Shown here in pieces: positions 2,405 to 24,823 of a stretch of 24,823 bases of DNA (position 1 is its first letter; every line of letters begins with the position of its first letter). The notes under the pieces are model-generated. The model was not told the DNA's origin. It did no database searches and worked only from the letters and a program-made list of their open reading frames with translations. The DNA is taken from positions 1 to 24,823 of the forward strand of contig NZ_JAQFIQ010000034.1 in NCBI RefSeq assembly GCF_029504745.1, in the 5' to 3' direction. This DNA comes from Breznakia sp. PF5-3 (lineage in GTDB: Bacteria > Bacillota_I > Bacilli_A > Erysipelotrichales > Erysipelotrichaceae). Position numbers and translations under genes: made by a program.

Positions 2405-2536
2405 AAAAAAACACCTCCGTGAGGCGTAGCAAAGTAATCTTACAATAAGATCAGACTCCCTACGCTAGTATTAACTAGATCAGGTCATAAGGGACTGTAT
2501 ACACATCTCAGCCATTTCTGGCGCCCCTGTCTTGAC
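2405..2536 (-). promoter_or_regulatory. TPP (THI-box) riboswitch with an SD-sequestering expression platform
   Basis: The minus strand reads AGGGGCGCC-agaaat-GGCTGAGA-...-GTCCCTTATGACCTGATCTAGTTAATACTAGCGTAGGGA, which matches the THI-box core (GGGGUGC / CUGAGA / ACCUGAUCUGGAUAAUGCCAGCGUAGGGA). Downstream, CTACGC can pair with the aptamer GCGTAG, and CCTC can pair with the GGAGG RBS. Confidence 0.9.
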
Positions 2537-2542
2537 TTACAC

Positions 2543-5324: not shown

Positions 5325-6722
5325 TCCGTTTTGTCGTCTTGCTATAGCTGGCAATATTAATCCCAATCCTAGCAATACAAATGGTGTAAGAACATTTAAA
5401 GCGATGTGTTGAAGATCACCTTTAAACATACCACCTAAACAAGCAAATGCTGTAAAAGCAAAACACCAAATCCCTGCAATTAAACCTAAAACTTTACTCT
5501 TTGTAAATTGATAATCAGCTTTATATTTGTTACCAGCTCGTTTTAACGCAATATAAGCAACAAATACCCATAAGTATCGTAGTGGCATGGTAACAGAGTT
5601 TAATTGAATCAAAGATTTAAACATTGCATTTACATCACCAGGTAACAATCCTGGTACAATGATTAAGATTGCAACAATAACCGTAACCAATTTAATTCCA
5701 TTAATATATACCCCTTTATCATTAAGCTTCAACATATTTTTTGGAATATAGTTTGTATCCGCTGAATCTAGTAACATACGAAGTGGAGCATCAATTGAAA
5801 CAATTAACACTGACAATTGTCCTACCACATTACATAAAGCATATATAATCATAAATAAATTTCCTACATGATAATATTCCCCTAATCTTTGAAATGCATA
5901 ATATGCACCATTCATCATTAAATCTTCAGGAATATTATTTGGATCAAACATCATACCTAATGCTATTGTTCCCAAGATGGCTGTTATCGCAACCATGATT
6001 GCTAAGAAAATCATCCCTTTTGGAAACCCTTTACTCGGATCCTTCATCTTGTTTACATATGGAGATATCCTCTCACACCCTCCAACTGCAAATACCAAAA
6101 TTGATAATGAAGTTAAAAATTTCCCATCAAAGGATGGCATAAACGTATCTAAACTCCAGTCAATTGAATGAATTTGATCACCTGCAATCGCTGGTGCCGC
6201 CATCATTAATACTATAAACAAAAGCGACATGACAAACATGGAAGAACCCGCTATCGTCGCAATATTCTTAAGTGGATTGATTCCTCTTGTAGATATCAAT
6301 ACAAAGATCAAGAACACCAATAAACAACCTATCTGCAACAATAATGGATTCATATCATTAACATAAGTTGCACTTCCTGTAATCGCCCAACTTAGTGCAA
6401 TAAGTGCACTTTGTGGTTTTTGTGATATATATGGCATATGTACTACCCAATATGTCCAACCTGCATAATACGCAATTCGTGGTCCAATTGTTTCATGAAT
6501 CCATGAACTTACTCCACCACCTAAATTCTTAAATGCTGATCCCATTTCACCAACCATAAGTGCATATGGAACAAAATATAAGGCAAACATTAGTATCCAT
6601 GAAACAATTGCTTTTAATCCATTATATTCAGAAAAACCATTTACTACATTTCCGAAGCTCCAAACAGATGCAAAAGCCATAAAAGCAAGATTATACCATA
6701 AGATTTTTTTTGACTCTTTCAT
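5313..6722 (-). CDS. APC-superfamily amino-acid permease (glutamate/GABA-antiporter-like)
   Basis: About 12-TM protein with an APC-like N-terminus (MKESKKILWYNLAFMAFASVWSFGN). I moved the start to ATG 6722 (RBS GAGGGGAAG). The track start at 6779 adds 19 unsupported residues. Confidence 0.8.
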   Translation of the reverse strand: MKESKKILWYNLAFMAFASVWSFGNVVNGFSEYNGLKAIVSWILMFALYFVPYALMVGEMGSAFKNLGGGVSSWIHETIGPRIAYYAGWTYWVVHMPYISQKPQSALIALSWAITGSATYVNDMNPLLLQIGCLLVFLIFVLISTRGINPLKNIATIAGSSMFVMSLLFIVLMMAAPAIAGDQIHSIDWSLDTFMPSFDGKFLTSLSILVFAVGGCERISPYVNKMKDPSKGFPKGMIFLAIMVAITAILGTIALGMMFDPNNIPEDLMMNGAYYAFQRLGEYYHVGNLFMIIYALCNVVGQLSVLIVSIDAPLRMLLDSADTNYIPKNMLKLNDKGVYINGIKLVTVIVAILIIVPGLLPGDVNAMFKSLIQLNSVTMPLRYLWVFVAYIALKRAGNKYKADYQFTKSKVLGLIAGIWCFAFTAFACLGGMFKGDLQHIALNVLTPFVLLGLGLILPAIARRQNGKKA

Positions 6723-14156: not shown

Positions 14157-14181
14157 GACGAAATGAAAATAAATTACGTTC
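14157..14181 (-). promoter_or_regulatory. ECF-type promoter candidate P2 (GAAC-N17-CGTC) upstream of the surface-protein genes
   Basis: The minus strand reads ataGAACgtaatttattttcatttCGTCata, 56 nt upstream of ATG 14101. It is near-identical in extended sequence to P1. Confidence 0.6.
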
Positions 14182-14275
14182 TATTCAAAATAATCTTTAA
14201 ATAACTCAAATAAAATATGTAATATATTTTTGGCTAACATATTACATATTTTTAACTATATTAATTTAAACCAAA

Positions 14276-15610
14276 TCAATTTGCCTCTACTATATCATTC
14301 ACCTTTATATCAAATGTTGCATAATTTCCAGCATGATCATACAATCGTAATTCGCCATTTGCAAGTATTTGTTCCTGTAATGTTGCAATCATATTTTTAT
14401 CATCAATGCTTTTAAATGAAATTCTTTGATTATTTGAAATAAAATATGATCTAGAAAAATCAACCCCTGCTAAATCATCCATAGCTGTAATTTGTAATAG
14501 CCCATTTCGTTCTTCCATTGAAACTATCTCTGGGAGAGATTTGTCAATATTAGAAATAGCTATATCTTTATGAAAATCTCCGTAAGCAAAATTATATATT
14601 CCATTACCTTTAGCAATAAAGCTTATCGTTTTTTGATCCTCTTTATGTACTTCTATGCTCTCGTTATTAAAGATAATAGAAATCAACTCCTCATTTATAT
14701 CATTATCAAACCTTAAAACAATTTGAAGATTTTTATTAGTCAAATTGTCATCAAAATTTATTTCTTCAAGCTTTGCTTCTTCCAAAATTGCTTCACTTTC
14801 ATTATTTGATGCTTGTAATTCATTAATACCAATATATGCACTTGTTCCACCAATCAGAATACTTGATGAAATAATAGCAACTGTTACAGCTGTTGATACC
14901 CCCTGCACACCTACTGAAGCAATTGTTGTTATCTCTGTAGATTGTGCAATCGTTTTATAAATAAAGTCTTGCTTATCCATACTAAGTGACTCACTTTCTA
15001 CAATTCGTTGAAATAACCGCACTGTTAATGGATTAATCGAAAACATTAAATACCTAGATGGTGTAATTTTTTTATTAGTTAATTCTTTTTGTAAAATCTT
15101 GCGAATTCGATATAATCTACTTTTGATTGTCCCCTCAGGCATATTCATAATTTGGGCAATTTCATCAATATTCAAATCACCAACAAAACGAAGTGTTGCA
15201 ATTCTTTGTGACTCATTTGGCAACTTATTAATTTCTTCTTTAACCTCTAAAAAAAGTTCATTTCGCACCATTTGTTCTTCTGTGCTAGCATCATCATTTG
15301 AATATACATCTTCAAAAAGAACTTCATTTCTTTCAGAATATTTAACATTTCTCCGATATATATCTAGGCTGCAATTATAAGTTATCCTAAAAACCCAGGA
15401 GTTAAATGCTCCTGTTTCTTTTACATTTCCACGGTTTTTTATAATCTTTATAAATGTTTCTTGCACTACTTCCTCAGCGTCTGCACTATTATGCAAAACA
15501 GAGAATGCCATATAATGAATTTTATTTTGATAATTCCTATATATTTCAGGAAAAACCGTATCATCTCCATCTAGAAATTGTCGTATTATCTTTTCCTTTA
15601 ATTTTGACAT
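14276..15610 (-). CDS. ECF-type sigma-70 family factor fused to a TM segment and a C-terminal extracytoplasmic domain
   Basis: Region 2 (EEVVQETFIKIIKN...FNSWVFRITYNCSLDIYRR) and region 4 (LPNESQRIATLRFVGDLNIDEIAQIMNMPEGTIKSRLYRIRKIL). A hydrophobic stretch covers aa about 227-262. The about 150-aa C-terminal domain is paralogous to that of CDS 16251..16898. Confidence 0.85.
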   Translation of the reverse strand: MSKLKEKIIRQFLDGDDTVFPEIYRNYQNKIHYMAFSVLHNSADAEEVVQETFIKIIKNRGNVKETGAFNSWVFRITYNCSLDIYRRNVKYSERNEVLFEDVYSNDDASTEEQMVRNELFLEVKEEINKLPNESQRIATLRFVGDLNIDEIAQIMNMPEGTIKSRLYRIRKILQKELTNKKITPSRYLMFSINPLTVRLFQRIVESESLSMDKQDFIYKTIAQSTEITTIASVGVQGVSTAVTVAIISSSILIGGTSAYIGINELQASNNESEAILEEAKLEEINFDDNLTNKNLQIVLRFDNDINEELISIIFNNESIEVHKEDQKTISFIAKGNGIYNFAYGDFHKDIAISNIDKSLPEIVSMEERNGLLQITAMDDLAGVDFSRSYFISNNQRISFKSIDDKNMIATLQEQILANGELRLYDHAGNYATFDIKVNDIVEAN

Positions 15611-15632
15611 ATTTTGCCCTCTCTATACATAT

Positions 15633-15657
15633 GACGTCAACCAATTTATATACGTTT
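15633..15657 (-). promoter_or_regulatory. ECF-type promoter candidate P3 (AAAC-N17-CGTC) directly upstream of the sigma-fusion gene
   Basis: The minus strand reads tcaAAACgtatataaattggttgaCGTCata, 23 nt upstream of ATG 15610. Confidence 0.5.
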
Positions 15658-15667
15658 TGAATTTATA

Positions 15668-16243
15668 TCATTTACCATTCCCAAAAGAATTAAATGGATA
15701 TAGAATAATAATCCCTCTTGAAATAATATTTTTTGCTTTAATCGCTCCAAAAGAACGTGAATCACTAGAGTAAGGGCGATTATCACCCAATACAAAATAT
15801 TCATCTTCTTTCAAAGAAACAGGACCAAAATCCTTCGTAAAAACTGATGATGTTTTAAGATAGTTCTGTTTATATTGCGCATCTAAAAACGGTTCTTCTA
15901 CTTCTATCCCATCTACATACAGTTTGTCATTCATATAGAAAATCGTTTCTCCAGGTAAACCAACCACTCTTTTCACTAATTCTATATCTTCACCTTTTCT
16001 ATTATTTGTATCTTTTATGATTACAATTTCAAAACGCTTTATATCTTTAATATTAGAAAATAATTTATTACTAACGCCATACTCACCAGCTTTTAATGTA
16101 GGATACATACTATCACCATAAATTTCAACTTGATGAAAAATAAATCTTGTAATTACAAAAATCAAAATCAGAAAAATTATTAGTACTTTTATCATAATGA
16201 TATTCCAGTACTTGATTTTATCTTTATCATCAGTTTCTCTCAT
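15668..16243 (-). CDS. lepB: Type I signal peptidase (S26 family, LepB/SipS-type)
   Basis: N-terminal TM, then GDSMYPTL (catalytic Ser box), VKRVVGLPGE (Lys box) and GDNRPYSSDSR. Confidence 0.9.
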   Translation of the reverse strand: MRETDDKDKIKYWNIIMIKVLIIFLILIFVITRFIFHQVEIYGDSMYPTLKAGEYGVSNKLFSNIKDIKRFEIVIIKDTNNRKGEDIELVKRVVGLPGETIFYMNDKLYVDGIEVEEPFLDAQYKQNYLKTSSVFTKDFGPVSLKEDEYFVLGDNRPYSSDSRSFGAIKAKNIISRGIIILYPFNSFGNGK

Positions 16244-16250
16244 TATAAGT

Positions 16251-16898
16251 TTATTCTATATCCTCTACCCGTATATCATAAGATGCATAGTTACCAGCTT
16301 TATCATATAACATCAAGGTAGCATCCTTCTCTAACGCTTCTTTAATTACAGCAATATCTTGTTTGCTTTTCATGATAGTAATTTTTTCATCATCAACTTT
16401 AATATGTGACTTCTTATAATCAATCCCACTACCTTTATCAGTTACTGTTAATGTCAATAAGCCAGACGAATCCTTATTAATACTTTTCAATACAGGCCCA
16501 TCTTTATCAATATTATCGATTTTTATCGTTTCGCTAAATTTTCCATATGAAATCTTATAATTTCCATTCTTCTGTACTATAAAATGAAGAACATCATCTT
16601 CTTTTTTTACTGCTATTTTCTTTTTGTTAGATGTAACGCTCAGCTTTGACTCATCAGCATCTCCGCTAATCATAATTGCCACCTGCACATCAGTATTAGT
16701 CTTTTCTTTTTTATATACGATATTTTCTATGTATGAGGTTGCAACTACCGAATCCTTACTATTTGACATTTCAAATATTGATATTGTTGCAACTAGTACG
16801 ATAACAACACTTAAAGTAACCAATACTATTTTGAGTCTTTTCTTGGATTTATCACTATTTTGAATAAATGTCATAATTTCCTTAATTTTCTTCATCAT
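16251..16898 (-). CDS. Single-pass membrane protein whose ectodomain is paralogous to the sigma-fusion C-terminal domain (anti-sigma-like or co-sensor candidate)
   Basis: TM LKIVLVTLSVVIVLVATISIF. The ectodomain aligns with the sigma-fusion C-terminus (NGNYKISYGKFSETIKIDNIDKDGP...GLLTLTVTD...LMLYDKAGNYASYDIRVEDI against NGIYNFAYGDFHKDIAISNIDKSLP...GLLQITAMD...LRLYDHAGNYATFDIKVNDI). The start may be the second ATG (16895), judging by AGGAGA spacing. Confidence 0.75.
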   Translation of the reverse strand: MMKKIKEIMTFIQNSDKSKKRLKIVLVTLSVVIVLVATISIFEMSNSKDSVVATSYIENIVYKKEKTNTDVQVAIMISGDADESKLSVTSNKKKIAVKKEDDVLHFIVQKNGNYKISYGKFSETIKIDNIDKDGPVLKSINKDSSGLLTLTVTDKGSGIDYKKSHIKVDDEKITIMKSKQDIAVIKEALEKDATLMLYDKAGNYASYDIRVEDIE

Positions 16899-16904
16899 CT
16901 TCTC

Positions 16905-17348
16905 CTACTTACATTTCATTCCCGCTTCACTTAAATTCTTTTTAGCTGTTTCAAGTTTAATTTTATCTTCATCTGCTGACAAAAATTGAACTAGTAAACC
17001 TGACTCTTTCAATTCTTTAATCGTACTATCGTCAATTGCTATCTTAATTGTTTCTTTTAACTCTTTATCTGAAATTTTATACGAGTAGTCTACTCCTTTA
17101 ATTTTTTTATACTGTTTCCCAACCGTTTTAGCTATTTCTTCTAAATCTTCTTTTGAATATAGTTCCTCATCAACTTCAATTTGATTATCATATGTAATCT
17201 TTTGAACCTCTCCATCTTTTGATTCCATTGTCACCGTAGATTCTGGTGTTGTTATATCTTCAAATGTACATACTGTTTCTTTTGTCTTTGATCCGCATGC
17301 TCCTAATAGTAGCACACATGAAAATAGCATTAATATTCTTTTTCTCAT
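16905..17348 (-). CDS. Lipoprotein (YehR/DUF1307-like)
   Basis: Lipobox LLLGAC|GSK after MRKRILMLFSCV. Size and the KGVDYSYKISDKELKETI pattern resemble DUF1307 lipoproteins (visual call). Confidence 0.7.
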   Translation of the reverse strand: MRKRILMLFSCVLLLGACGSKTKETVCTFEDITTPESTVTMESKDGEVQKITYDNQIEVDEELYSKEDLEEIAKTVGKQYKKIKGVDYSYKISDKELKETIKIAIDDSTIKELKESGLLVQFLSADEDKIKLETAKKNLSEAGMKCK

Positions 17349-17409
17349 TTCTCAGTTTCCTTTCTTCATTTATTCAAGCTACAGATATTTCTGCTCACTT
17401 CATAAATAT

Positions 17410-17434
17410 GACGAAAGAAAAATCAATTGCGTTC
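17410..17434 (-). promoter_or_regulatory. ECF-type promoter candidate P1 (GAAC-N17-CGTC) upstream of the lipoprotein to sigma operon
   Basis: The minus strand reads gtaGAACgcaattgatttttctttCGTCata, 62 nt upstream of ATG 17348 and just downstream of terminator 17465-17500. Confidence 0.6.
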
Positions 17435-17464
17435 TACATCTTTAAAAAAAAATCATTTTTCCAC

Positions 17465-17500
17465 AAAAAAAAGCCAAGAGTATCTTAAATAACTCTTAGC
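17465..17500 (-). terminator. Rho-independent terminator (ends the candidate sRNA/leader)
   Basis: The minus strand reads gctaagagt-tatttaagat-actcttggc (9-bp stem, 1 mismatch) followed by 8 T. Confidence 0.7.
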
Positions 17501-17592
17501 TTTTATATGCAATATGTGGGAGTGAACCTTGATCAATAGTCTAAGCTATAAAGGTTTTTACGAGATCTAAGTCTCAAATGTGAACACTCCCT
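17501..17592 (-). ncRNA. Candidate structured small RNA or cis-leader of unknown class
   Basis: Closing helix GGGAGUG (17591-17585) / CACUCCC (17524-17518) encloses two hairpins, GAGA-CUUAGA-UCUC and AACCUU..AUAG-CUUAGA-CUAU..AAGGUU, with identical hexaloops. An extended -10 (TGaTATACT, 17607-17599) lies about 7 nt upstream of the helix. The terminator follows. Confidence 0.3.
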
Positions 17593-17667
17593 AATTAAAG
17601 TATATCACATTCCCTCACACATTTGCGTAAGTCTTATGTTTTATTAAGATATCTCTTAACTTTATAA

Positions 17668-17720: not shown

Positions 17721-18905
17721 TTATTTAATAATTTCAGTAACGTTTCCAGCTCCAACTGTACGTCCACCTTCACGGATTGAGAACTTAGTTCCTTGTTCAA
17801 TCGCGATTGGTGCAATAAGTTCAACTGTCATTTCTACGTTATCACCAGGCATAACCATCTCAGTTCCTTCTGGTAAAGTAATAACTCCTGTTACATCCGT
17901 AGTTCTGAAGTAGAATTGAGGACGGTAGTTAGAAACGAATGGTGTATGACGTCCACCTTCTTCTTTACTTAAAACATATACTTGTGCTTTAAATTGAGTA
18001 TGTGGTGTTACACTACCAGGTTTACAAAGAATTTGTCCACGTACGATTTCATCACGGTTAACTCCACGAAGCAATGCTCCAATGTTGTCTCCAGCTTCAG
18101 CGTAATCTAACAATTTACGGAACATTTCAATTCCTGTAACAACTGTTTTCTTAGTATCTTTGATACCAACGATTTCAACTTCTTCATTGATGTTTAATTG
18201 TCCACGTTCAACACGTCCTGTAGCAACTGTACCACGTCCTGTAATTGTGAAAACATCTTCTACTGACATCAAGAATGGTTTGTCAGTTTCACGTACTGGA
18301 TCTGGAACGTATTCGTCAACTGCATCCATCAATTCATTGATTTTTTCTACCCAAGCAGCATCTCCTTCAAGAGCTTTAAGAGCAGATCCACGAATTACTG
18401 GAGCGTTATCTCCATCAAAGTTATATTCGCTTAATAATTCACGAACTTCCATTTCAACTAAATCTACTAATTCATCGTCATCAACCATATCACATTTGTT
18501 TAAGAAAACAACGATTTTGTCAACACCTACTTGGTTTGCAAGTAGAATGTGTTCACGTGTTTGAGGCATAGGCCCATCAGTTGCAGCAACTACTAAGATT
18601 GCTCCATCCATTTGTGCAGCCCCAGTAATCATGTTCTTAACGTAGTCAGCATGACCTGGACAGTCAACGTGTGCATAGTGACGTTTTTCTGTTTGGTACT
18701 CAACGTGTGCAGTATTGATTGTAATTCCACGTTCTTTTTCTTCTGGTGCTCCATCAATTTGGTCATAAGCTTGCGCTTCAGCTTGACCTTTGTTAGCTAA
18801 TACATTTGTAATAGCTGCTGTTAATGTTGTTTTACCGTGGTCAACGTGACCAATTGTTCCAATATTAACATGTGTTTTCGATCTATCGAACTTTTGTTTA
18901 GACAT
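17721..18905 (-). CDS. tuf: Elongation factor Tu
   Basis: Unmistakable EF-Tu sequence ([30 protein letters not shown]), 394 aa. Confidence 0.99.
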
Positions 18906-19020
18906 TTTAATTTCCTCCTAATAAGTTTCTTTTCATCTTAGTGGTTTTTACCACAAATTAATTTAGTTATCCTTTTTTATTTTAAATCAAAATAATCATA
19001 AAAGCAACATCTAAAATGAA

Positions 19021-21093
19021 TTATGCACTTGCACGTTCTTTCATGATTTTTTCACCAATACTTTTTGGTACTTCAGAGTAGTGTGCAAACTTCATTGAGT
19101 AGTTACCACGCCCTTGAGTGAACCCACGTAAGTCAGTTACATATCCGAACATTTCTGAAAGTGGAATCATTGCTCTAACGCTAATTGCATTTCCTCTTTC
19201 TTCTTGTCCATCAATCATTCCACGACGAGATGATACATCCCCCATAACTGATCCCAAGTATTCACTTGGTGCTGTAACTTCAACTTCCATGATTGGTTCA
19301 AGAAGTACTGGATCACATTTCTTTGCAGCTTCTTTAAGTGCCATACTAGCAGCAATCTTATAAGCCATTTCACTTGAATCGACATCATGGTAAGACCCAT
19401 CAAATAAAGTTGCTTTGATATCAATTACTTCATATCCTGCAAGCATACCATTATGTAAAGCAGATTCCACTCCTTCACCAACAGCTTTGATATATTCTCT
19501 AGGAACCGATCCACCAACTGTCTTATCTTCAAATATGAATCCTTCATTAGGATTTGGTTCAAATTTAATCCAAACGTGTCCATATTGTCCACGTCCACCT
19601 GATTGTTTAATGTATTTCCCTTCACAATCTGCTTCCTTGCGAATTGTTTCACGGTAAGCAACTTGAGGTGCCCCAATATTTGCTTCTACTTTAAACTCTC
19701 TTTTCATACGGTCAACAATGATATCAAGATGTAGTTCACCTACACCAGCGATAATTGTTTGTCCTGTTTCTTCATCTGTATAAGTTTTGAAAGTTGGATC
19801 TTCTTCAGCAAGTTTCGATAAAGCAAGTCCCATCTTGTCTTGGTCACCTTTTGACTTAGGTTCTACAGCAACACGAATAACTGGTTCAGGGAATACCATT
19901 GATTCAAGTACGATTGGTGCATCTTCAGCACACAATGTATCTCCAGTAGTAGTATCTTTCAATCCTACTGCTGCAGCAATATCTCCAGCATTCACTTCAC
20001 TTATTTCTTTACGCTCATTCGAGTGCATTTGTAGAATACGTCCAAAACGTTCTTTTTTATTTTTCGTCGCATTCAATACATATGTTCCAGATTTTGCTGT
20101 TCCTGAATAAACTCTAAAATAAGATAATTTTCCAACATATGGATCTGTCATAATCTTAAATGCTAATGCACTAAATGGTGCACTATCAGAAGATTCACGA
20201 GCTTCTTCTTCACCTTTTGGTGTTGTACCAGTAATTGCTGGTACATCAATAGGCGAAGGTAAGTAAGCAATTACTGCATCAAGCAATAATTGAACTCCCT
20301 TGTTCTTATATGCTGAACCACAAAGTACAGGGAAGAATTCACCGGTAATAACAGCTTTACGAATTGCTTCTTTAATTTCATCAATAGTAGGTTCTTCACC
20401 TTCTAGAACTTTCATCATAAGTTCATCATCAAAATCAGCAACTGCTTCAATCAATCCTTGATGTAATTCATCACATTTTGCTTTTAAATCAGCAGGAATT
20501 TCGATTGTTTCAATTTCTGTTCCTAACTCATTTGTATAATTATAAGCTTTCATTTCAACCAAATCAATGATTCCGTTAAAGTTTGCTTCAGCACCGATAG
20601 GGTATTGAATTGGAGCACTCTTCGCTCCTAAACGATCAATAATTGTATGACAACTCATATCAAAGTCAGCACCTGTAGCATCCATTTTATTACAGAATAC
20701 AATACGAGGTACTCCATAAGATGTTGCTTGACGCCAAACCGTTTCGGTTTGTGGTTCAACACCAGCTTTAGCATCCAATACGGTAACCGCACCATCTAAT
20801 ACACGAAGTGAACGTTCAACTTCAACGGTGAAGTCAACGTGACCTGGTGTATCGATAATGTTTACACGATACCCATTCCAAGCAGCTGTTGTAGCTGCTG
20901 ATGTAATCGTAATCCCACGTTCTTTTTCTTGGTCCATCCAGTCCATTGTACTGGCACCATCATGAGTTTCCCCAATCTTATGATTTACCCCTGTATAATA
21001 AAGGATACGCTCAGTAGTTGTTGTTTTACCAGCATCGATATGGGCCATGATCCCTATATTACGTGTTTTTTCTAATGTAAATTCACGAGCCAT
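19021..21093 (-). CDS. fusA: Elongation factor G
   Basis: [24 protein letters not shown] and full-length 690-aa EF-G architecture. Confidence 0.99.
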
Positions 21094-21105
21094 GCCATCG
21101 TCCTC

Positions 21106-21576
21106 CTACCAGCGATAGTGAGCAAACATTTTATTTGCTTCCGCCATTTTATGGATATCTTCACGTTTCTTAACAGAAGCTCCATTTCCTTCAGCAGCAT
21201 CCATAATTTCAGCTGCTAATCTTTGTTCCATTGTTTTTTCATTTCTTAAACGAGCATAGTTAACAATCCAACGAAGTCCTAATGTAAGTCTTCTCTCTTG
21301 AGAAACTTCAACTGGTACTTGGTAGTTTGAACCACCAACTCTTCTTGCTTTAAGTTCTAACATTGGCATAACATTTTCTAGTGCTTGTTCAAACACTTCC
21401 ATCGGTTTCTTTTCCGATTTTACTTCAATAATATCAAACGCATTGTATAAGATTGTTTGTGCAACTCCTCTTTTACCATCAACCATGATTTTGTTAATTA
21501 AACGAGTAACTAATTTAGAGTTGTAAATTGGATCTACTAATACATCACGTTTTGCAATATGTCCTTTTCTTGGCAT
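21106..21576 (-). CDS. rpsG: 30S ribosomal protein S7
   Basis: [40 protein letters not shown]..., 156 aa. Confidence 0.99.
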
Positions 21577-21606
21577 ATCTAATACCTCCTTTTCATGATT
21601 GTGCGA

Positions 21607-22026
21607 CTATTTCGCAGCTTTTGGTTTTTTTGTACCGTATAATGATCTAGATTGATTACGATCATTTACACCAGCACAATCAAGTGTTCCACGTACCACG
21701 TGATAACGAACCCCTGGTAAATCTTTAACACGTCCACCACGGATTAACACAACACTATGTTCTTGAAGATTGTGTCCAATCCCTCCGATATAAGCATTTA
21801 CTTCCATTCCGTTACTTAAACGAACACGAGCATACTTTCTTAGAGCAGAGTTTGGTTTCTTTGGCGTCATTGTCCCAACACGCGTACATACTCCACGTTT
21901 TTGTGGTGCCGCTTGATTTGTTGGACGACTTTTCAAAGAGTTGTACCCTCTGTTCAAAGCAGGTGCTTTCATAATCCATACTTTATCTTGACGACCTTTT
22001 CTAACTAATTGATTAATTGTAGGCAT
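21607..22026 (-). CDS. rpsL: 30S ribosomal protein S12
   Basis: [12 protein letters not shown]...[10 protein letters not shown]. The start is at ATG 22026 (AAGGAG RBS), not at the track start 22041. Confidence 0.98.
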
Positions 22027-22115
22027 ATTTTCTCCTTTCAAATCTTACACACATTTCCGGGTGTGTCATTTTGTAGCATTTAAAATGTTCCTTTCGGAAC
22101 TTCGCTAGCCTATTA

Positions 22116-22144
22116 ATAATATAATAATAAAAGAGTGATGTCAA
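22116..22144 (-). promoter_or_regulatory. SigA-type promoter of the str operon
   Basis: The minus strand reads TTGACA (22144-22139), a 17-nt spacer, then TATTAT (22121-22116). The leader that follows has hairpins gttcc-gaaa-ggaac and acacac-ccggaaat-gtgtgt. Confidence 0.6.
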
Positions 22145-22153
22145 CACTCTTTT
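22129..22153 (-). terminator. Terminator hairpin immediately after the sigma-WG gene stop
   Basis: 9-bp stem aaaagagtg / cactctttt with a 7-nt loop. On the minus strand it is followed by attattatatt, a weak U-tract. The loop carries the TTGACA -35 of the str promoter. Confidence 0.5.
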
Positions 22154-22158
22154 ATTAT

Positions 22159-23937
22159 TTATTTCAGATCCATAAAACCCCATATTCCGTTTTTCCTTAC
22201 CATGATTACACCATTTGCTGGTGCACTCAAATCATCATATTTCCCTTGAAAAAGAATATTCCCTTTATTATCCAACAATCCCATTTCATCACCAAGTTTA
22301 AAATATGCATAATTTTTATTTAAAACTTCCATATCATCATAGAGGTTTGATGTTAAGTTTATTCCTTCTTCATTTATTAATTTCCATTTATCTCCTTTAC
22401 GAAGTGCCGCTAATCCATATACTCTTTTAGGACCAGCTACCGTAATATAAACTGTTCTTACTTCATCATATATATTATGACTAATAGGCTTATCATTTCT
22501 AAAAACAATATATTTTTTTGTTTCCTTATAGTCAAACTGTGGATTATCAAACCGATGTGTATCTACCTCAATAATTTCAGTCGTATCTTTTTCTCGAGTT
22601 TGATATAAAACCCATTTTAGTTTTGTATCAAACGAAGTTCCTGTTTCATTAAAATCTTGCATGAGCATATATACTTGTTGTCTATCTGAAAAATAAACAA
22701 CTGGAGGATATGTGCCACCAATTCCACTACATATCCCTTTATCCTCCACTTCAACATCTATTAAATCCACTACATAGTGAATTGCTTCCATAGAATACTC
22801 ATCTTTGGGTGGATATACAAATGCATAAGCATCTTCCCCCAAACATTGACGATATTTTTCTTGCTTCTCAAAAACCACGGTATTGTCAATATCTACAAAT
22901 TTTGACTTGCCATTTTCAGTAAGTAAAAATCCTTTATCATAAAGTGCGATTGGTCGCTCATCAAGATAATGTGAAGGAACAACACGCCATGTATCTTCAT
23001 TCAAAGCAGTTTGCGTATCAATCGGGTGGGGTTGTGTTTCACTTGGCGGATTGATATCAACTGTTTCTTTTTGCTTCAGTTGTTGATTATTAATTAAAAT
23101 ACCTGCTGTTGCCAGTACTGCAACAGCACTAACACCAGCTATAACTTTAGCAACTGTAGCAGTTGCAATCGTCACGCCGGCAATTGTAATCACTCCTGTA
23201 CCCACTGCTGTACCACCTATTGCAGCTAGGGTCGTGGTAGAAACAACTTCAGGAACGATAGTAGAACTTGCTAAATCCTTTAATATATATAAGAAAAGTG
23301 GAATTGGTGCCACACTCCTCAATTTCGTCCCAGTTGATTCTACTTCTTCTACTTTCCGCTTGATTTGCTTCTTGCCATAATTTAATCTGCTTTTTACCGT
23401 ATTTGGTGATATATCTAAGATATCTGCTATTTCATTGATTGATAGTTGTTGATAATAAAACATAAGAATACACATTCTATTTTCTTCACTTAATTCATCA
23501 ATCATATTTGATATAGCTTCTTTCAATTCATTATAATTATATGTTTCTGATGGATTGAACTCTATTTTATCATCTTCAATAAACTCCTCAATATTTTGAT
23601 CATCTTCTGTTGTATCTGTAAAAAGAAACGGCTTTTTTTTCTTTAAATAATCTTTTGCTTTATTGGCAACAATCCTATTTATCCATTGTGGAAACTTATT
23701 ATCATCATCCAATTGTGATAACTTCGAAAATGCTATCACATATGCATCTTGGAGAATATCAAAAACTGTTTGTTCATCACTTACAAACTTCTTTGCTACA
23801 AAATATACATTATTTGAAGTTTGTTCATAAATTTCTTGTATCGCTTTTTGATCTCCGTCCCTAGCCCTACATACATAGTCACTAAGTCCCTCTTCTACGC
23901 TTCTTCTTTTAAAATTAAACACACTCATTACCCACAC
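22159..23937 (-). CDS. Second ECF-type sigma-70 family factor fused to TM segment(s) and a C-terminal WG-repeat domain
   Basis: Region 2 (DILQDAYVIAFSKL...FPQWINRIVANKAKDYLKK) and region 4 (LSEENRMCILMFYYQQLSINEIADILDISPNTVKSRLNYGKKQIKRK). A long Ala/Gly/Thr/Val-rich hydrophobic stretch follows. C-terminal WG-type repeats are present (GDKWKLINEEG, EMGLLDNKGN, NGIWGFMDLK). The start is ambiguous between GTG 23937 and ATG 23928. Confidence 0.8.
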   Translation of the reverse strand: MWVMSVFNFKRRSVEEGLSDYVCRARDGDQKAIQEIYEQTSNNVYFVAKKFVSDEQTVFDILQDAYVIAFSKLSQLDDDNKFPQWINRIVANKAKDYLKKKKPFLFTDTTEDDQNIEEFIEDDKIEFNPSETYNYNELKEAISNMIDELSEENRMCILMFYYQQLSINEIADILDISPNTVKSRLNYGKKQIKRKVEEVESTGTKLRSVAPIPLFLYILKDLASSTIVPEVVSTTTLAAIGGTAVGTGVITIAGVTIATATVAKVIAGVSAVAVLATAGILINNQQLKQKETVDINPPSETQPHPIDTQTALNEDTWRVVPSHYLDERPIALYDKGFLLTENGKSKFVDIDNTVVFEKQEKYRQCLGEDAYAFVYPPKDEYSMEAIHYVVDLIDVEVEDKGICSGIGGTYPPVVYFSDRQQVYMLMQDFNETGTSFDTKLKWVLYQTREKDTTEIIEVDTHRFDNPQFDYKETKKYIVFRNDKPISHNIYDEVRTVYITVAGPKRVYGLAALRKGDKWKLINEEGINLTSNLYDDMEVLNKNYAYFKLGDEMGLLDNKGNILFQGKYDDLSAPANGVIMVRKNGIWGFMDLK

Positions 23938-23997: not shown

Positions 23998-24059
23998 TAA
24001 CTTTTTTAAAACTTTTTTTAAACTATCTCGTCTTATAACTGTAACAGGAGCTGATTAGA

Positions 24060-24730: not shown

Positions 24731-24823
24731 ATCGAGTAGGAGGTAACTGATTAATTCAGTTACCGACCTCTCACACCACCGTACGTACGGTTCCGTATAC
24801 GGCGGTTCAGTATATTTTAACGG
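24731..24823 (-). mobile_element. 3' end of a group II intron (domains V and VI, 3' splice site), truncated by the window edge
   Basis: The minus strand shows a DV-like 32-nt hairpin (24806-24775): ACCGCCGUA-UACG-GAAC-CGUA-CG(bulge)-UACGGUGGU, with a conserved G-U wobble and a CGC triad position. DVI follows: GAGAGG-UC-GGUAACUGA-AUUAA-UCAGUUACC-U-CCU-A(bulged, 24737)-CUC. The intron ends ...CUCGAU at 24731, 6 nt after the bulged A, like Ll.LtrB ...CCUCCCUACUUCAC. Confidence 0.65.

Follow-up and report, generated by a model that had tools for sequence, protein, structure and literature searches.

Breznakia sp. PF5-3, an insect-gut bacterium, carries, on contig NZ_JAQFIQ010000034.1, a gene island that includes a sigma factor of the extracytoplasmic function (ECF) type. 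The window analysed here is the whole 24,823-nt stretch, and nearly all of its genes lie on the minus strand. In the direction of transcription the island consists of genes for a DUF1307 lipoprotein, a membrane-anchored protein (p214), a type I signal peptidase, the sigma factor (sigma 1) and four surface or membrane proteins; the gene of a second sigma factor (sigma 2) lies further upstream, beyond rpsL, rpsG, fusA and tuf (Table 1). A two-part motif, in which AAC as putative -35 element is followed by CGTC as putative -10 element, recurs at three sites of the island (P1, P3 and P2) and at a site ahead of sigma 2 (P4). The original prediction held that these sites are promoters of an autoregulated ECF regulon.

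Table 1. Features of the window in the order of transcription, with the basis of assignment where given
Feature	Position	Strand	Remarks
Phosphotransferase system (PTS) EIIA gene	24661-24182	minus	
P4	core 23996-23973, with -35 23997-23973	minus	predicted separate ECF-type promoter before sigma 2
Sigma 2, 589 aa	23928-22159	minus	Pfam, hydropathy
rpsL, rpsG, fusA, tuf	22041-17721	minus	
Spacer between tuf and lipoprotein gene			372 nt
P1	core 17433-17410, full 17434-17407	minus	exact AACG-N16-CGTCATA match
P1 boxes	-35 GAAC 17434-17431; -10 CGTCATA 17413-17407	minus	
DUF1307 lipoprotein, 147 aa	17348-16905	minus	Pfam
p214	16895-16251	minus	BLASTP vs sigma 1, hydropathy
Type I signal peptidase, S26, bacterial P-type	16243-15668	minus	Pfam, TIGR02227
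P3	core 15656-15633, full 15657-15630	minus	motif match
P3 boxes	-35 AAAC 15657-15654; -10 CGTCATA 15636-15630	minus	
Sigma 1, 444 aa	15610-14276	minus	Pfam, hydropathy, AlphaFold, Foldseek
Hairpin, candidate sigma 1 terminator	14252-14212	minus	RNA fold
P2	core 14180-14157, full 14181-14154	minus	motif match
P2 boxes	-35 GAAC 14181-14178; -10 CGTCATA 14160-14154	minus	
Surface-protein operon, four genes	14101-8114	minus	
p518	14101-12545	minus	Big_3 domain, C-terminal membrane anchor
p1053	12522-9361	minus	C-terminal dockerin
p359	9324-8245	minus	weak cohesin-like match, C-terminal anchor
p44	8248-8114	minus	small membrane protein

All four sites read on the minus strand where they had been placed: the core letters are GAACGCAATTGATTTTTCTTTCGTCATA at P1, AAACGTATATAAATTGGTTGACGTCATA at P3, GAACGTAATTTATTTTCATTTCGTCATA at P2 and AAACTTTAGGAAAAGGTTAGTCGTCAAG at P4. 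The spacer is exactly 17 nt in each of them, and P1, P2 and P3 end in CGTCATA, as had been claimed. The minimal motif AAC-N17-CGTC occurs seven times in the window, compared with 1.01 +/- 0.90 times in dinucleotide-preserving shuffles, none of which reached seven (0/100). The extended form AACG-N16-CGTCATA is confined to P1, P3 and P2 (n=3; 0.02 expected; 0/100 shuffles reach three). The earlier partial hand scan, which gave no further match, needs a small correction: three minimal matches had been missed [6235-6258 (plus strand), 12154-12131 (minus strand) and 18456-18479 (plus strand)]. These extra matches all fall within coding sequence, do not have the AACG...CGTCATA form, and their count is near the chance expectation.

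The motif had been said to occupy every intergenic gap of the island. This is true of the three gaps that exceed 50 nt, the sole ones of that length in the island, where P1, P3 and P2 lie on the coding strand; it does not hold for the other four, which are 7-36 nt long and inside operons. The stretch from CGTC to the start codon measures 61 nt at P1 (ATG 17348), 22 nt at P3 (ATG 15610) and 55 nt at P2 (ATG 14101). The gap of 22 nt has room for a short leader with a GAGAGGG ribosome-binding site. For P2, the called ATG was taken as the gene start; it is preceded by an AGGAAGGAG ribosome-binding site, and the mechanically called GTG 14149 is an unlikely start.

P1 sits directly past a terminator-like hairpin. 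Upstream of P2, an AT-rich hairpin of 17 bp followed by a U-run (14212-14252; fold z-score -3.1; equalled by 0/200 shuffles) is likely to be the terminator of the sigma 1 transcript and to set P2 apart from it. A scan of the window for sigma-70-like promoters found no enrichment (83 sites, compared with 84.6 in shuffled sequence), and no such site coincided with P1 or P2 among the best 60 of the 83. A housekeeping promoter as alternative was rejected on these grounds; the sole match near one of the sites, a weak one at 15640-15611, overlaps the P3 -10 element.

At most sites in the window and at related loci of other genomes (P1-P4, L003, L004, L089 and L090) we also noted a box rich in purines and similar to a ribosome-binding site (AGAAAGGAG, GTGAAAGGA or GTGAGGA), 8-12 nt past the -10 element. 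It is kept even where the real ribosome-binding site lies 50 nt further on. The box resembles the 5' 'STAB-SD' mRNA stabiliser GAAAGGAGG of Bacillus thuringiensis cryIIIA.

Sigma 1 and sigma 2 are ECF sigma factors and not orthologues of any named one. Both matched Pfam Sigma70_r2, Sigma70_r4_2 and Sigma70_ECF, with no match to r3 or r1, and both exceeded the cutoff of TIGR02937 (sigma70-ECF; 96.3 and 93.0 bits vs 42.9). Their best named relative in NCBIfam was SigW, at about half of the equivalog cutoff (best: NF007223, 116.5 bits vs 209), and the scores for the SigW, SigV, SigM, SigX, SigY and SigZ equivalogs were all far under the curated cutoffs. In a PDB search made with sigma 1 alone, the closest solved structure was B. 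subtilis SigW (E = 2e-23).

In sigma 1, the ECF domain (residues 1-180) is followed by a linker of ~55 aa, one membrane helix (~235-260) and two tandem immunoglobulin (Ig)-like outside domains (~280-440). AlphaFold modelled residues 280-440 as two tandem beta-sandwich domains, with a predicted local distance difference test score (pLDDT) of 88, and the linker poorly (pLDDT below 50 for residues 183-277). A Foldseek search of the PDB with the sensor domain, as we call the outside part, gave generic tandem Ig/FN3 matches alone and no functional lead. The scanned products of adjacent genes had no Pfam or NCBIfam match to an anti-sigma factor, and no A-x-A signal-peptidase site past the membrane helix was conserved in the alignment of the family (A1). 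No detectable copy of the sensor domain occurs in the regulated surface proteins: nothing in the window was significant, and the best neighbour (E = 0.005) belonged to locus L007. A profile of the domain matched 202 representative proteins, most of them 410-465 aa long and carrying it C-terminally, as further sigma fusions would. It also matched free-standing forms of ~200 aa (~190-215 aa) and giant unrelated proteins with up to 21 repeats.

Only a small number of full-length sigma 1 relatives turned up, every one of them in Breznakia or Coprobacillaceae. Orthologous islands were found in two other genomes of these groups (L003 and L004), with sigma proteins 38% identical. Both carry TGGAACCTTTT-N10/11-CGTC ahead of the sigma gene and again ahead of the 499- or 514-aa surface operon that is orthologous to the one in the window. 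In L003, the sigma gene has TGGAACCTTTTT-N11-CGTCAC 30 nt ahead of it and the 499-aa operon is preceded by GGGAACCTTTT-N11-CGTCAC, giving a signature typical of that genome, GGAACCTTTT...CGTCAC. In L004, TGGAACCTTTTT-N10-CGTCTAT stands ahead of the sigma gene, ahead of the 514-aa operon, whose four-gene order is that of the window, and at a third site, so that the typical signature is GGAACCTTTTT...CGTCT. A paralogue on a different contig of the genome that the window belongs to (L007) has AAAC-N17-CCGTC ahead of both its sigma gene and a 1682-aa neighbour. Paralogues in Breznakia pachnodae show TGAAC-N17 followed by CGAC (L009, L011), CGTC (L006, second sigma) or CATC (L006, P0007). Altogether, CGTC sites precede the sigma genes at P3, P4, L003, L004, L006 (sigma B), L007, L089 and L090, and three further sigma genes are preceded by CGAC or CATC.

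A scan of the genome collection gave four family loci (L009, L010, L011 and L024) among 80, the rest being unrelated ECF factors, for example of Paenibacillus. A scan of metagenomes based on alignment A1 yielded nothing but generic ECF sigmas, matching residues 7-180, and added no orthologous islands.

We pooled the eight loci with called genes and defined the upstream zone as 200 nt. Same-strand upstream zones, 9.4 kb in all, contained 15 occurrences of AAC-N16/17-CGTC, and the other 246 kb contained 12, a 33-fold enrichment (Fisher p = 3e-15). The rival view, that short words recur by chance in AT-rich DNA between genes, is effectively refuted. The minimal motif does specify just seven bases and has three more matches inside genes, but, beside this cross-genome enrichment, none of the 100 shuffles reached the observed counts, and CG-containing words would be expected to be rarer, not commoner, in AT-rich spacers.

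Across orthologous sites, the two boxes and their 16-17 nt spacing are kept and the spacer letters are not. This bears on whether the repeated element is a promoter at all or rather a duplicated stretch of DNA between genes or a site bound by a conventional transcription factor. P1 and P2 are identical at 24 of 28 positions, spacer included, as after a duplication, and P3 holds an 8-bp palindrome, TGACGTCA. However, what P3 has in common with P1 and P2 is limited to both short boxes and their exact distance, and the palindrome is found in neither P1 nor P2. The intergenic sites, moreover, face the downstream gene at promoter distance, with the exceptions of an L004 same-strand site 278 nt ahead of its gene and an antisense match beside P4, and no alternative promoter is evident in these gaps. 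We therefore regard a non-promoter element as very unlikely.

The promoter form itself is documented. B. subtilis promoters of sigma-M, W, X and V have tgaAAC at -35, often with a T-tract after it (tgaAACnTTTT), a spacer of 16-17 nt and CGTC, CGTA or CGAC at -10 (PMC5758882). The orthologous sites of L003 and L004 share with them a striking T-tract beside the -35 element (AACCTTTTT), a feature described by Gaballa et al. (PMC5758882). The strongest support for an ECF interpretation is that the orthologues and the paralogue carry the two-part motif ahead of both the sigma gene and a neighbour. Together with ECF-type sigmas encoded at the locus, the documented promoter form and the comparative conservation of the motif give good in silico support to the predicted ECF-promoter regulon.

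Which sigma factor reads the sites is a separate matter. They could be ECF promoters recognized mainly or also by sigma 2, by the contig-63 paralogue P0006 or by an unfused ECF factor, in an overlapping multi-sigma regulon. In B. subtilis, sigma-M, X, V and sometimes W read CGTC -10 elements (PMC5758882), this genome encodes at least three fused ECF paralogues, and all of these have upstream motifs of the AAC...CGTC type. Yet the extended signatures differ, being AACG...CGTCATA at P1-P3, AAAACT...GTCGTCAAG at P4 and AAAC...CCGTC(C/T) at L007, and within each genome the signature is common to the sigma promoter and the adjacent target promoter, as it would be for insulated cognate pairs. Ten variable positions flanking both boxes were more alike within genomes (identity 0.70) than between them (0.39; permutation p = 5e-5). 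This sharing of flanks within genomes and their co-variation with the sigma factor are as expected for cognate sigma-promoter pairs, and we consider an overlapping regulon unlikely.

Our preferred reading, which we hold to be probable, is that P1, P3 and P2 are promoters of a three-unit circuit read by RNA polymerase with the sigma 1 ECF domain. P3 would drive the sigma 1 gene and thus provide positive autoregulation. P1 would drive the genes of the DUF1307 lipoprotein, p214 and the type I signal peptidase, and P2, behind the terminator hairpin, those of four surface or membrane proteins, two of them membrane-anchored, one dockerin-bearing and one a small membrane protein. The C-terminal extension of sigma 1 would tether the sigma domain to the membrane until cleavage is set off by a signal from outside, and the released domain would then activate the three promoters. 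From the motif with its statistics, placement, conservation and co-variation across genomes, and from the protein architecture, all of which are observed, we infer the transcription start sites, the sigma-promoter assignment and the proteolytic activation.

Several points weigh against this circuit. The support for the regulon comes entirely from sequence. Assigning P1-P3 to sigma 1 rather than to a paralogue is a deduction, because the CGTC -10 element is read by several ECF sigmas of B. subtilis and because of the number of fused paralogues in this genome; CGTC is a permissive -10 element, which makes cross-recognition among paralogous sigmas plausible. The likeness of P1 and P2 could stem from recent duplication rather than from selection. 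The tether-and-release step is proposed for sigma 1 by analogy with fused ECF factors, and Pfam found no anti-sigma domain, zinc-binding or FecR-like, in the linker (residues 180-235), where the AlphaFold model is of low confidence. Two family loci, L010 and L024, have no recognizable motif. Finally, the part of this genome on which the motif and the regulon were read comprises ~36 kb.

P4 had been described as a fourth copy of the same motif. It turned out to belong to a distinct promoter class that is conserved ahead of sigma 2 orthologues. Its form is TAAAAC-N17-GTCGTCAA, which can also be written TAAAACTTT-N-GTCGTCAAG. A sigma 2 orthologue that is 52% identical (L089) has TAAAACTTTTT-N-GTCGTCAAA at equal distance, and B. 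pachnodae (L090) has TAAAACC-N-GTCGTCAAT ahead of the sigma operon and again ahead of an operon of three NlpC/P60 hydrolases; more distant members of the sigma 2 family show AAAACC-N15/16-TGTCTTA. Since this signature is kept ahead of sigma 2 orthologues, P4 is placed in a sigma 2 circuit, most likely as the predicted autoregulatory promoter of sigma 2 and outside the P1-P3 set.

Sigma 2 itself combines an ECF domain, one or more hydrophobic segments (234-280) and an outside domain with WG-containing repeats; its alignment with sigma 1 extends through the membrane helix. In the sigma 2 family, more than 617 clusters keep the sigma domain, the linker and the membrane part, and the C-terminal outside domain varies.

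Just upstream of P4, the opposite strand carries AAAAC-N16-CGTC (24010-24032, plus strand), antisense into the PTS EIIA gene. This match overlaps a palindromic stretch, AAAGTTTT/AAAACTTT, and is probably due to chance. At two loci of distant sigma 2-family members, genes of leucine-rich repeat (LRR) surface proteins sit downstream of the sigma gene and are preceded by a conserved element of ~35 nt, CGTTTCCTTTGTATCCTTGTAGCCCATATTTAGTA, that is not of the AAC...CGTC type (L092, 6170-6215 and 9055-9100; L093, 6190-6235). The target promoters at these loci may thus differ from the autoregulatory promoter.

The genes that P1 is predicted to drive recur with fused sigma factors elsewhere. The lipoprotein matched Pfam DUF1307 with 37.5 bits (cutoff 28.3), and DUF1307 lipoproteins with 34-35% identity are encoded directly upstream of sigma paralogues in L009 (5430-5885) and L010 (1619-2059). 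Its recurrence directly upstream of fused-sigma genes in three genomes suggests that it is part of the signalling module. In BLASTP, p214 aligned with sigma 1 residues 258-440 (34% identity over 184 aa, E = 8e-30), and it has one strongly hydrophobic N-terminal helix (residues 23-41). By sequence and hydropathy it is a predicted membrane-anchored, free-standing copy of the outside Ig-like domain of sigma 1, and, if expressed from the predicted P1, it might serve the sensor as a sigma-induced decoy or partner. The signal peptidase was identified by Pfam Peptidase_S26 (E = 5.7e-43) and TIGR02227 (136 bits). In each of the three orthologous islands (window, L003 and L004; 46-47% identity) the gene for an S26 peptidase immediately precedes the sigma gene, and by analogy with RsiV the peptidase is a candidate for the first cut of sigma 1. 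It could equally process secreted products of the operon.

The three large proteins of the P2 operon, p518, p1053 and p359, have a common N-terminal domain of ~220 aa (E = 1e-40 to 1e-18). The cohesin profile stayed below threshold for p359 (18.8-19.7 bits vs 24.1) and matched weakly in three of eight family members (best E = 9e-5), and the best PDB profile match was a scaffoldin cohesin (E = 0.087). The domain thus appears weakly cohesin-like. Dockerin_1 in p1053 was above threshold (26.6 bits vs 22.9), and hydropathy indicated C-terminal membrane anchors in p518 and p359. A PDB sequence search with p1053 gave nothing useful, and Pfam and NCBIfam scans detected no RsgI, carbohydrate-binding module or glycoside hydrolase domain in the island.

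Compared with B. subtilis SigW, SigM, SigX and SigV, the window shares sigma factors with regions 2 and 4 only, promoters with AAC at -35 and CGTC at -10, 16-17 nt apart, and a promoter directly ahead of the sigma gene. It differs in that sigma 1 is without a separate anti-sigma gene, its membrane-spanning part being fused to the sigma domain, and in that the predicted targets are large surface proteins instead of cell-envelope stress genes.

The fusion itself has precedents. According to the part of PMC8999054 used here, fused sigma/anti-sigma ECF factors are known in other phyla, namely Pseudomonas putida IutY (ECF243) and the actinobacterial groups ECF48, ECF52 and ECF53 (e.g. SCO4117), and regulated proteolysis of the extension is the proposed mode of activation of IutY and ECF52. 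As in these hybrids, the C-terminus of the ECF domain of sigma 1 and sigma 2 continues into a membrane-spanning segment and an extracytoplasmic domain. Unlike those described there, the host here belongs to Erysipelotrichales in Bacillota, the outside part of sigma 1 consists of two Ig-like domains, and no zinc-finger or FecR-like domain was detected. Partners such as the lipoprotein, the S26 peptidase and the sensor copy of sigma 1 are not mentioned for the hybrids in that part of the source (PMC8999054).

A second comparison concerns sigma-V and its anti-sigma RsiV. Sigma 1 resembles this system in its type II topology (N-terminus inside, C-terminus outside), in the CGTC -10 element and in having a P-type signal peptidase at hand, whose gene immediately precedes that of the sigma factor in three genomes. 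RsiV, which binds lysozyme, is a protein of its own, and signal peptidase is said to make the first cut in this anti-sigma of B. subtilis sigma-V (work attributed to Hastie et al. 2014 and Castro et al. 2018). By contrast, the sensor is fused in sigma 1, and alignment A1 has no conserved A-x-A past its membrane helix.

Like SigI/RsgI of Clostridium thermocellum, the island has a sigma factor with a membrane-spanning sensor beside genes of dockerin-bearing and cohesin-like surface proteins, and apparent autoregulation. Unlike that system, sigma 1 is of the ECF type and not of the SigI type, its sensor is fused with no separate RsgI, the island has neither a carbohydrate-binding module nor a glycoside hydrolase, and the cohesin assignment is weak.

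An autoregulated ECF sigma with AAC/CGTC promoters is a textbook circuit, and the gain here is an annotation and a lead, with no new principle. The protein family, in which a fused ECF factor with Ig-like sensor goes with a lipoprotein, a signal peptidase and a sensor paralogue, appears to be uncharacterised, and its architecture has precedents in other phyla. For these membrane-anchored ECF factors of Erysipelotrichales, the predicted circuit provides a wiring diagram with three promoters, as many transcription units and a candidate for the cognate sigma. The genome-specific promoter variants could serve as naturally insulated sigma-promoter pairs, and something new about the release of fused sigmas might be learned from their conserved association with a DUF1307 lipoprotein, a signal peptidase and a sensor paralogue. 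B. pachnodae DSM 16784 is a cultured relative in which paralogues with TGAAC-N17-CGAC/CGTC sites make the prediction directly testable.

A more far-reaching joint reading, which we find rather unlikely as a whole, would make the island a self-contained membrane-tethered sigma module of a kind not described in Bacillota. In it, an ECF factor fused to a membrane helix and two Ig-like sensors would depend for its release on the dedicated S26 peptidase, which, as with RsiV, would cut first; the DUF1307 lipoprotein would be a co-sensor, p214 a feedback decoy, and the output a non-cellulolytic dockerin/cohesin-like surface complex in insect-gut Erysipelotrichales. If this were true, the sigma 2 type, with its interchangeable outside domains, would represent a widespread family of one-protein transmembrane signalling devices (>600 clusters at 90% identity).

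Some further features of the window were observed. The rpsL-rpsG-fusA-tuf operon is flanked by the two fused-sigma units (17721-23928, minus strand). Sigma 2 stands alone as a unit of one gene; its terminator (22159-22123) overlaps the strong rpsL promoter (TTGACA-17-TATTAT, 22144-22116). On the other side of the operon, between the tuf terminator (17696-17675) and P1, a stretch of ~180 nt (17455-17640, minus strand) contains a promoter of housekeeping-like form, TTACGC-N17-TGATATACT, a stem that pairs GGGAGTG with CACTCCC over a long range, and a terminator hairpin of its own, followed by a U-run (fold z-score -3.7). An Rfam search of this spacer gave no family; the stretch may be a small RNA.

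At the edge of the window, Rfam recognized group II intron domains V/VI (24731-24807, minus strand; 48.1 bits vs a gathering score of 40), and the remainder of that intron would fall off the contig. A thiamine pyrophosphate (TPP) riboswitch (2440-2538, minus strand; 71 bits) lies upstream of the gene of a ThiT/YuaJ-type thiamine transporter (1886-2404), in an ordinary layout.

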